Shown: positions 14,884-55,754 of the stretch, in pieces
How the letters are laid out: the number at the start of each line of letters is the position of its first letter
Numbering within the stretch: the stretch's first letter is position 1
Origin: Escherichia coli
Lineage (GTDB): Bacteria > Pseudomonadota > Gammaproteobacteria > Enterobacterales > Enterobacteriaceae
Length of the DNA: 64,000 nucleotides
Assembly: GCF_044324875.1 (NCBI RefSeq)
Contig: NZ_CP172185.1
Reading direction: 5' to 3' (one strand)
Made by a program: the position numbers and the translations under genes
The notes under the pieces: generated by a model
The model's database searches: none
Told to the model about the DNA's origin: nothing
What the model saw: the letters and a program-made list of their open reading frames with translations, nothing else

Positions 14884-15501
14884 TCACTCAGGATCCTTTT
14901 CGCGCTTTCTTTTGAATTTCGTCCAGATTTTTGTCTCTTGACGACGCCACAGACGCTGGATGTTGTCATGATGACGCAGCAGGATCAGGCATGAGAGCAT
15001 CGAAACCGGGAAGGTGAATTGTGGCTTAAACCACCAGACGTAAAATGGAGCAATCAGTGCGCTGACAATCGCTCCCAGCGACGAGTATCCGCTCAATAGC
15101 ACGGTCAGTAACCAGGTTCCCGCCATTACTCCGGTGAGATCCCAGCCAATTGGTGCGATGGCACCAAAAGCGGTAGCAACGCCTTTTCCTCCTTTAAAAC
15201 CGAAGAAAACGGGCCAGATGTGTCCAAGACAGGCGGCGATGGCAATTAAGCCTAGCCAGAAGGGGCTGACACCTAATTCATACGCGCCCCAGACAGGCAA
15301 CATTCCTTTCAGAACGTCGAAAATCAGTACTGCTACGGCTGCTCCCTTGCCACCGATACGTAACACATTGGTTGCGCCTGGATTGCCGGAGCCGCTGGTT
15401 CGCGGATCGGGCAGCCCACACAAGCGGCAAACCAGAATGGCACTGGAAATGGAGCCGCAGAGGTACGCGATGAGGATCATTCCAGGCGCGATTGCACTCA
15501 T
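14884..15501 (-). CDS. plsY: Glycerol-3-phosphate acyltransferase PlsY (acyl-phosphate dependent)
   Basis: 205-aa membrane ORF with the SGNPGATN motif. Confidence 0.93.
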
Positions 15502-52124: not shown

Positions 52125-53474
52125 TTACCAGCTCACCTTCGCCTCAAATCCACGTTGTTCCGCATTCCCAAACTCAACATTCATGCCATGCAATTTGGCG
52201 ATTCGCTGGACAATCGATAGCCCAAGTCCACTGCCGGTAGCGGTTTGTCCGGGTGGGCGATAGAAGCGTTCGCCAATTCTCGCCAGTGCCTCTGGCGTCA
52301 CACCGGGGCCGTTATCCCTCACGATGAAACTATCGGCATTCAGCGTGACGTCCACCACGCTGCCCTGTGGACTGTAGCGCACGGCGTTATCCAGAAGGTT
52401 TCGTACCAACAAACTTAGCAACAGCGGTTGTCCGGTGCGTTTGATGCCGTGGGCATTGAGTGTCAGTCGCACGTCAATTTTCGCCTGCTGCGCCGTGTGG
52501 TAAATATCCATCACCGATGATTGCAGGAGATCTTCAAGCGGGATCTCCGCGACGTCCTGAAGGTTATCCAGTGAGTCCAGCCGCGATAGCGTGAGCAGTT
52601 GATCAACCAGACGAGTAGCACGATCGATTCCGGAATGTAATTGAAGCAGCGCTTTTTTCCGCGCCTGCGGATCATCGTCAGAGAGCTGCGCAACTTCGGT
52701 TTGCACTTTCAGCGCCGTTAACGGGCTACGAAGTTCGTGAGCTGCGTCGGAGGTAAAGCGTCGTTCTCGAACCATCATCGCATGTGTGCGGGCGAACAGT
52801 TGATTCAACGACTCAACCAGTGGACGCACTTCGCTGGGTACGCCCGTCGCGTTTAGTGGTTTTTCCGAGTCAGGGTCACGCATACGTAGTGCCAGCGCCA
52901 GTTTGTTCAGCGGCGCGAGTTCACGACCCAGTAGTACCATCATGATGATTAACATAATCGGCAGTGCGACAAGCCACGGGATCAATTGCCCTGCAACAAT
53001 CGCCAGCGCCATGTCTTCGCGGTATTCCCATTCCTGACCAACAACGATGCGATATTTGCCATCAGGTGAGGTCATCCAGACAAAACGCCAGGGATCGTCT
53101 TCACCGACCAGTTGCCCGTCAGCAAAACCTTCCCGTTGATAGCTATAGGGAATATCTTCTCCGTTATCGCCATCGTTAAGGACCATTCTGCCGTCGTGGG
53201 TAAAGATGGCAAAGGTTAGCGCATCGTCATCAACATGACCGTGTTTTAATTTATTTGGCGTCTGTGCCATGCGATCTGCCGCGTTGATTTCGTTGAGATC
53301 GAGCGTACTTAACCGCTTGGCAAACAGCATCAGTTGGGTGTCGAACAACTCATCGACGTTATCCGTTGTTTGTTTCCAGGCGACAAAGCTGGAAAGCAGC
53401 CAGGTCACTGAGGCCAGAATTAAAAAGATTAGCGTCAGCCTGACTCGCAGACTAAGACGTTGGGTAAATTTCAT
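52125..53474 (-). CDS. qseC: Two-component sensor histidine kinase QseC
   Basis: 449-aa ORF with two TM helices, HAMP, HisKA (HELRSPL) and HATPase_c domains; start overlaps the qseB stop. Confidence 0.93.
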
Positions 53475-54130
53475 TTCTCACCTAATGTGTAGCCAATACC
53501 ATGAACGGTACGAATAAAATCACTGCCGAGTTTGCGTCGCAGATGATGCACATGCACTTCAACGGCATTACTGGTGACCTCTTCGTCCCAGGTATACAGT
53601 TTCTCTTCAATCAGTTTGCGCGGCAGTACCCGACCAGCGTTACGCATCAGTAATTCCAGCAGGGCAAATTCTTTTGGTTTCAGAGTTAAGGGTTCGCCAG
53701 CCAGCGTGGCGATACGTTTGCCGGGGTCGAGCATGACGTTACCGTGGCGCAGTTCGTTGCTGGCCTGGCCGTTGGTTCGGCGCATCAGAGCTTCCAGCCT
53801 GGCGGCGACTTCTATCAACGCAAAAGGTTTACACAGATAATCGTCAGCTCCCAGACGCAGCCCCTCTACACGTTCCGCTAACGCATCGCGCGCGGTCAGG
53901 ATCAGTACCGGCTCACGCTGACCTTTTTCTCGCCATTCGCGCAAAATATCGCGACCATCCATGCCTGGTAAGGTTAAATCCAGGATCACCGCATCATAAG
54001 GCGCACTATATAGCGCCTCTTTTCCCTGACGACCTTGTGTAAACCAGTCGACGCTAAAACCCATTTTACTAAGGCCCGTTTTGATGCCGTCGCCAATCAG
54101 CATGTCATCTTCTATCAGTAAAATTCGCAT
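53471..54130 (-). CDS. qseB: Two-component response regulator QseB (OmpR/PmrA family)
   Basis: 219-aa ORF with a receiver domain and winged-helix DNA-binding domain. Confidence 0.93.
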
Positions 54131-54215
54131 TTTTTCATCCCTGCGATAACCGTATTTGCTGCCAGTAAACCGTGTTGTAACGAGCTCTGTACAGCATTAA
54201 ATTTTATTTTTTTCC

Positions 54216-54247
54216 CTTAAGAAGTTGTTAAGGACTATCTTGTTAAA
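54216..54247 (+). promoter_or_regulatory. Direct repeats CTTAAG-N5-GTTAAG, plus a third GTTAA half-site, upstream of ygiW (PmrA/QseB-box-like)
   Basis: Hexamers at 54216 and 54227 are spaced one helical turn apart and resemble the PmrA-family box CTTAAT-N5-CTTAAT; they lie 35-65 bp upstream of the ygiW ATG in the qseB-ygiW divergent region. Confidence 0.45.
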
Positions 54248-54281
54248 TGCTCGGAAACAGACATTAAAGGGAGTAATAAAC

Positions 54282-54674
54282 ATGAAAAAATTCGCAGCAG
54301 TAATCGCAGTAATGGCCCTGTGCAGCGCACCGGTGATGGCAGCAGAGCAGGGCGGTTTTTCTGGCCCATCGGCAACGCAAAGTCAGGCCGGAGGATTCCA
54401 GGGGCCGAACGGCAGCGTAACGACCGTAGAAAGCGCAAAATCCCTGCGTGACGACACCTGGGTAACCCTGCGCGGCAATATCGTTGAACGCATCTCTGAC
54501 GATCTCTACGTGTTCAAAGATGCCAGCGGTACTATCAATGTTGATATCGACCACAAACGCTGGAACGGCGTGACGGTGACGCCGAAAGATACGGTTGAGA
54601 TTCAGGGTGAAGTCGATAAAGACTGGAATTCTGTTGAAATTGACGTCAAACAGATCCGCAAAGTAAATCCGTAA
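54282..54674 (+). CDS. ygiW: Periplasmic OB-fold (BOF family) stress protein
   Basis: 130-aa protein from the ATG at 54282 (SD AAAGGGAG) with signal peptide MKKFAAVIAVMALCSAPVMA. Confidence 0.88.
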   Translation: MKKFAAVIAVMALCSAPVMAAEQGGFSGPSATQSQAGGFQGPNGSVTTVESAKSLRDDTWVTLRGNIVERISDDLYVFKDASGTINVDIDHKRWNGVTVTPKDTVEIQGEVDKDWNSVEIDVKQIRKVNP

Positions 54675-54726
54675 TTGTTACCGCTCCCGGGACACATTCC
54701 CGGGAATAATTTCGCAGGGAGGCAAA

Positions 54727-55209: not shown

Positions 55210-55754
55210 TGAAGAATCTTTACCGGAGTGTGAGCCAAATCACTCGCGATAAGTTTGAGCGAATAATGCCACAGGCGTATTGTTGTTGGGCTTATAATTT
55301 CTCCGGTAAGGAATACCATGTATACGCGAAATTTATTATCCGGTGCGCCGTAAGCCGTCTCGAGGGTACCCATGAGCAGGCCGCACTTATGGCAGGAGGC
55401 GCGGGGCACAGGTGGAGACACTGCTAAGCTGGGCTGAACCGTATACTTACAGACGACTACTTTGATGCTTTAGGCTTCCCTGGACTCGCATAACCTCAAC
55501 TTCTCGAATCGCCCGGTGCGGACCCGCATGCCGAGTGGTGTGGCATGGGCGCAACCTTGTGTTGCCCCCTATGCCGATCAAGTCTACAGCAAAGAGTTGT
55601 ATATCAAGACACATTGATGTCTTTATCGCCGTCGGAGCACGTCCGGCGGCGCTATTCACGCTGATCTCCTGTGACTCGACGCGGCAGATAATGTAGTATC
55701 TCCGGCAATATTGCCCCTTTGAAGGCTGGCGAATAAGTTGAGGAATCAGAATTA

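Follow-up and report, generated by a model that had tools for sequence, protein, structure and literature searches.

Known PmrA- and QseB-dependent promoters

The closest described relatives of the site considered here are the promoters activated by the response regulator PmrA (BasR). In these promoters the pmra-box, which consists of two XTTAAY hexamers 5 nt apart, replaces the -35 element; in the complex of PmrA with RNA polymerase, the two DNA-binding domains occupy the box head to tail and make contact with sigma region 4 and the beta flap. Four PmrA/BasR promoters of Escherichia coli K-12 share a simple layout of box, 10 bp and -10-like hexamer. For arnB (pbgP) it reads CTTAAGGTTAAGTTAAT, 10 bp and TAAAAT, and eptA (pmrC), waaH (yibD) and pmrR are built alike. 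In all four the promoter-proximal hexamer of the box ends in T (CTTAAT or GTTAAT). Other class II promoters of the OmpR/PhoB family, such as those with a PhoB pho box or a PhoP box, also place an 11-bp direct repeat over the -35 region and involve contacts with sigma region 4 and the beta flap; however, their half-sites differ in sequence from the TTAA core discussed below, and no membership in those regulons is claimed for the present site.

A second relevant system is QseBC. In Aggregatibacter actinomycetemcomitans, which has no PmrAB, ygiW and qseBC form a single operon with one promoter; its main transcription start site (TSS) has been published at -53, with repeats said to flank the -35 region, and deletion or mutation of the QseB site is reported to abolish QseB-dependent induction. 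For E. coli, the sequence CTTAA-N6-CTTAA has been named as the PmrA site of the qseBC promoter, as suggested by Guckes et al. (2013), and perhaps also as a QseB site. It is reported to be identical to the mutationally validated Aggregatibacter QseB site. Direct binding of PmrA to the qseBC promoter has been reported, and both PmrA and QseB are described as required for the return of qseBC expression to baseline. A PmrA/QseB-type box common to the control of ygiW and qseBC is therefore already in the literature. For the same regulator, QseB, Clarke and Sperandio proposed the consensus CAATTACGAATTA (GYRACAATWA-N4-TT), which was derived partly from the qseBC upstream region and was accompanied by DNase footprints. 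[quoted passage not shown]

The published expression data point repeatedly to ygiW. It is up 355-fold with PreA in Salmonella, is the most upregulated gene of UTI89 lacking qseC, and is up to 300-fold higher in a Klebsiella qseC deletion strain. In uropathogenic E. coli, Salmonella and Klebsiella, over-activation of QseB also brings a sharp increase in qseB expression. In Citrobacter rodentium the pair formed by QseCB and the ygiW promoter works as a gut biosensor, according to a preprint that also notes that ygiW is not linked to QseB in E. coli databases. The regulators that databases do list for ygiW are GlaR and Lrp.

The box between qseB and ygiW and its conservation

The DNA analysed is a 64,000-nucleotide (64-kb) stretch of E. 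coli sequence, here called the window. Within it, qseB (53471-54130, minus strand), the gene for the response regulator expected to act at the box, and ygiW (54282-54674, plus strand; ATG at 54282), the gene for an OB-fold periplasmic protein, are divergent and separated by an intergenic region of 151 bp (54131-54281). An earlier note on this sequence had described a direct repeat of the PmrA/QseB type in this region, and the repeat is as claimed: on the plus strand, CTTAAG (54216-54221), AAGTT and GTTAAG (54227-54232) form a box at 54216-54232 with two TTAA-core hexamers and an 11-bp period, followed by GACTATCTT and GTTAA (54242-54246). The placement of these elements upstream of ygiW, from 66 to 35 bp before its ATG, was likewise borne out. 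The minus strand of the box reads CTTAAC-AACTT-CTTAAG, or CTTAA-N6-CTTAA, the form in which the literature had already described the repeat, a point missing from the earlier note. With respect to the pmra-box consensus YTTAAK-N5-YTTAAK, the box agrees at 11 of 12 positions in either orientation. The polarity of the repeat cannot be read from the half-sites, because TTAA and CTTAAG are self-complementary.

The window alone gives only a weakly significant signal for the box, with one occurrence of YTTAA-N6-YTTAA found against 0.5 expected, although the exact 12-base pattern is unique in the window. The full module, in which TTAA-N7-TTAA is followed after 11 nt by TnnAnT, also occurs once, against 0.02 expected. 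Two near-matches to the module, at 15014 and 46215, have one core mismatch each, where 0.64 would be expected by chance. A second box was also sought upstream of mdaB, because this gene is activated by PreA in Salmonella, and none was found in the E. coli ygiZ-mdaB intergenic region.

Comparison across species is far more informative. The comparative set comprised 80 qseB loci, one per species, with ygiW located in each. Exactly one NTTAAG-N5-NTTAAG is present in each of the 43 divergent qseB-ygiW loci from other Enterobacterales species, as it is in the window (44/44), while shuffling predicts a box in 0.43 of the 44 regions. These loci span the order from Escherichia to Providencia, Pectobacterium and Budvicia. 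Read towards ygiW, their consensus is CTTAAGA-N4-GTTAAG, with positions 6, 7 and 17 invariant and a G at position 12 in 42 of 43. The module of box, 10 bp and TnnAnT extends to 67 loci, namely the 43 divergent ones and 24 of other organization: in Pasteurellaceae it precedes ygiW-qseBC, and in Serratia and Rahnella, which have no adjacent ygiW, it directly precedes qseB. Orthologous loci thus keep the site, which is inherited together with the regulator gene. A box, 10 bp and TTTAAT also stand upstream of a qseB homologue in a Neisseria metagenome-assembled genome (locus L081, 1354-1386), outside Enterobacterales and Pasteurellaceae. Some Haemophilus and Actinobacillus loci carry a real third half-site, in phase and on the upstream side of the box, for example ATTAAC-N5-CTTAAC-N5-CTTAAG (L064, 965-992; L065, 516-543; L072, 521-548; L077, 871-898).

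Within E. coli, the 37-nt core at 54214-54250 is 100% identical in 5411 of 5416 genomes. The 152-nt stretch at 54131-54282 is matched in 5,421 of 5,426 complete genomes, yet the intergenic region as a whole is polymorphic, and just 1,487 genomes reach 99% identity or more across it. The polymorphisms in K-12, O157 and ATCC 11775 all lie outside the functional elements. As a detail, none of the matches listed for the 152-nt stretch is 100% identical, and the sole intergenic difference from ATCC 11775 is at 54183, a spacer position of the qseB proximal promoter where the window has A, ATCC 11775 has C and the cryptic-clade isolate SC418 has T.

The box here differs from the K-12 PmrA boxes in two respects. 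It is flanked by divergent genes and associated with qseB, whereas the PmrA boxes go with LPS-modification genes; and the promoter-proximal hexamer, which ends in T in the latter, ends in G in the qseB-linked boxes, namely in 43/43 divergent modules and 21/24 of the others. A G or a T at this position might separate boxes preferred by QseB from those preferred by PmrA.

A probable ygiW promoter and its regulator

The ygiW side of the box resembles the four K-12 PmrA targets not only in the box itself but in its geometry, which upholds the PmrA-family likeness that had been proposed. A spacer of 10 bp (54233-54242, plus strand), of the same length in all 67 modules, separates the box from the -10-like hexamer TTAAAT (54243-54248, plus strand), so that the box takes the position of a -35 element and the -10-like hexamer follows after a short, constant interval. 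Among the divergent regions, a TnnAnT hexamer exactly 10 bp past the box begins with T in 43/44, and its fourth and sixth bases are A and T in 44/44; the variants seen across loci are TTTAAT, TGTAAT, TTAAAT, TTTACT and TCTACT. Unlike this fixed spacing, the distance to the ygiW ATG ranges between 47 and 85 bp. The consensus, TTTAAT, agrees with TATAAT at 5 of 6 positions, but the A at -11 is usually missing (TTAAAT, TTTAAT). A generic promoter scan of the intergenic region returned nothing useful and no -35-like hexamer, which is unsurprising because activator-dependent promoters are expected to escape such a scan. From the position of the hexamer and the geometry in A. actinomycetemcomitans, the ygiW start is predicted at 54255-54256 (plus strand). 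Primer extension in Salmonella is at odds with this prediction, giving starts at -161 for ygiW and at -423 for preA.

The mapped promoter of A. actinomycetemcomitans also has the module. Its orthologous module is CTTAATACTTTCTTAAC, 10 bp and TTTAAT (1135-1140), and the TSS at -53 falls on an A 8 nt after TTTAAT; the description of repeats flanking the -35 region also fits. When A. segnis was used as a stand-in for this species, the fit was to a start at -50 rather than -53, a mismatch that the real sequence resolved. A conserved hairpin (CAACAAAGC...GCTTTGTT) opens the ygiW leader right after the mapped TSS (L088, 1149-1170, and Pasteurellaceae loci). The E. coli arrangement differs from that of A. 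actinomycetemcomitans in that the genes are divergent, so that one box must serve two promoters, and in that cross-talk with PmrA exists. We also considered a symmetric pair of -10 elements around the box, formed by TAAAAT at 9 nt in the direction of qseB and TTAAAT at 10 nt in the direction of ygiW; this was rejected, as the qseB-side hexamer is not conserved (GAAAAT, GAGATA, GATTCT).

The genome carries the gene for a cognate regulator, QseB, whose DNA-reading helix is PmrA-like. QseB shares 46% identity with BasR/PmrA, including the base-reading N188 and the recognition helix (EVHxHxLRxK), and its closest solved structures are PmrA-DNA (4s04/4s05) and the activation complex of PmrA with RNA polymerase (8jo2). 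Because the box persists in Pasteurellaceae, which lack PmrAB, QseB would be its cognate reader; cross-binding by PmrA in E. coli is plausible and reported. It had further been suggested that QseB, or cross-talking PmrA, controls both ygiW and qseBC, and this is plausible in view of a module that travels with qseB and ygiW through 67 loci and of published PmrA binding and QseB-dependent ygiW expression.

We consider it quite probable that the box is an operator for QseB, a member of the OmpR/PhoB family, usable also by its paralogue PmrA/BasR, and that it serves as a class II activator site for ygiW and also underlies the autoregulation of qseBC. According to this model, the two TTAA-core hexamers, 11 bp apart, would bind the two winged-helix domains of a phosphorylated dimer, with QseB presumably occupying this exact site in E. 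coli. Towards ygiW, the box would stand in for the -35 element (about -40 to -24), followed by the fixed 10-bp spacer and the weak -10. Because of this replacement of the -35, with a fixed spacer and a weak -10, the bound regulator is predicted to recruit sigma-70 RNA polymerase as a class II activator, in a manner comparable to the solved PmrA complex, and so to turn on ygiW(-ygiV). The same dimer, located about 67 bp upstream of the conserved qseBC proximal start and across an A/T tract, would most likely give positive autoregulation of qseBC.

There are other ways to read the repeats. The earlier note counted the GTTAA at 54242-54246 as a third half-site, in which case QseB or PmrA would occupy CTTAAG, GTTAAG and GTTAA together and the ygiW promoter would lie further downstream. 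The pentamer is indeed present, and arrays of three repeats do occur in the Haemophilus and Actinobacillus loci described above; but those third repeats are in phase and on the upstream side, whereas the element here begins 15 bp after the second hexamer rather than 11 or 22. Many orthologues have lost its TTAA core (TGTAAT, TTTACT), as has SC418, where the hexamer is TTTAAT, GTTAA is gone and the match to TATAAT is better; what stays invariant is the T, A and T of hexamer positions 1, 4 and 6. Moreover, the TSS of A. actinomycetemcomitans suits the orthologous hexamer as a -10. We therefore regard a three-site array as unlikely; because of the out-of-phase offset and the unconserved core, the supposed third half-site is, on sequence grounds, most likely the -10 element of ygiW, whose hexamer takes in the TTAA of the pentamer. 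A different possibility is that CTTAA-N7-TTAAG is a palindrome bound symmetrically by another regulator, such as YgiV or another factor listed for ygiW, of which GlaR and Lrp are the database entries. The self-complementarity of TTAA would allow this, and among the flanking bases conservation is highest at the outer C and outer G. However, the site travels with qseB where ygiW or ygiV is absent (Serratia, Rahnella), it fits the pmra-box and the promoter geometry of that box, and mutation of the Aggregatibacter site is reported to abolish QseB-dependent induction, so that symmetric binding by another factor is very improbable. Least credible of all is a chance similarity between A/T-rich sequences with no function: although a degenerate pattern expected 0.5 times in 64 kb is unimpressive by itself, the universal conservation of the box with fixed geometry refutes this idea.

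The qseBC side and implications

With the QseB operator as the preferred reading, the question is how the same box relates to qseBC. When the closer Enterobacteriaceae are aligned, two blocks on the qseB side of the box, CTGTACA and GGTTTACTG, prove to be conserved. The first contains the -35-like hexamer TGTACA (54188-54193, minus strand), which in at least 20 loci stands 22-23 nt away from the box, and the second the -10-like hexamer TTTACT (54164-54169, minus strand), with a spacer of 17-18 nt. In E. coli, TGTACA-18-TTTACT predicts a start at 54157 (minus strand), which is -27 from the qseB ATG and coincides with the published EHEC proximal TSS; the hexamers and their spacing within 17 +/- 1 bp are those of a sigma-70 promoter. 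The O157 sequence has this promoter at identical coordinates. The block around the -10 (GGTTTACTG) exceeds a hexamer, which hints at an extra constraint.

The box is centred near -67 of the proximal promoter. Between it and the qseB -35 lies an A/T-rich tract of 22 bp (54194-54215), and the A-tract adjoining the box is conserved in Enterobacteriaceae. The two predicted starts (about 54256 and 54157) are separated by 99 bp, and the tract is at UP-element distance from each of them. Between box and -35 there are 22-23 nt in most taxa, with outliers of 34 nt in one Cedecea locus and of 64-66 nt in Edwardsiella, Buttiauxella, another Cedecea locus and Enterobacter sp. Ag1. Because this spacing is only roughly in helical phase across taxa, a class I-like action from upstream on qseBC is put forward here conditionally: QseB may act on qseBC in this way.

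An alternative that has to be weighed on this side is that the box exists mainly for the EHEC distal qseBC promoter (TSS -77/-78), overlapping its -10 region and modulating or repressing qseBC, with ygiW as a secondary or indirect target. The requirement for both PmrA and QseB in the return of qseBC to baseline would agree with such a role. The distal TSS corresponds to window position 54207/8, inside the A/T tract and 8-9 nt from the box. The published assignment of QseB dependence to this start counts against the preferred reading, since at this distance occlusion rather than activation would be predicted. Against a primary role at the distal promoter, the aligned loci show no conserved -10 or -35 suited to a start at 54207/8, and it is on the ygiW side that a conserved element keeps constant spacing to the box. 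In addition, the same module directly drives the operon in taxa without the divergent gene, and the induction of ygiW is at least as great as that of qseB. We consider this alternative improbable, if less so than an array of three half-sites.

A stronger version of the class II reading can be offered tentatively, with somewhat less than even confidence. It holds that what the literature calls the PmrA/QseB site of the qseBC promoter is a class II activator site for ygiW, and that qseBC autoregulation in Enterobacteriaceae is secondary, exerted by the same dimer from about -67, over the common A/T tract, on the -27 promoter, the two starts being back to back and 99 bp apart. If this is true, the distal TSS (-78) and the classical QseB consensus are poor guides to QseB action. 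The Clarke and Sperandio consensus has no match in the qseB-ygiW intergenic region. Its sole perfect match, at 54666-54681 on the minus strand, lies on the ygiW stop codon just upstream of ygiV and is specific to E. coli, with four mismatches in E. albertii and absence from other genera.

Downstream of this locus the window has parC directly after ygiV (55210-55754), with neither ygiS nor mqsRA, a junction shared by 1,353 of 5,426 complete E. coli genomes. By comparison, both mqsRA and ygiS are present in K-12, and of these only ygiS in ATCC 11775.

With a common box already described, the refinements made here, namely the assignment of the ygiW -10, the direction in which the module points, the conserved -27 promoter and the lack of conservation of the classical QseB motif, are new but incremental. 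Their interest lies in the regulatory system to which they apply. In pathogenic E. coli, cross-talk between QseBC and PmrAB has effects on polymyxin tolerance, on virulence and on cell shape, and ygiW-ygiV is the most strongly induced output, with YgiV conferring resistance to albicidin and cystobactamid. A defined architecture of operator and promoter offers clean targets for mutagenesis and a ready-made biosensor promoter, and it helps to sort out the conflicting QseB motifs that have been published.
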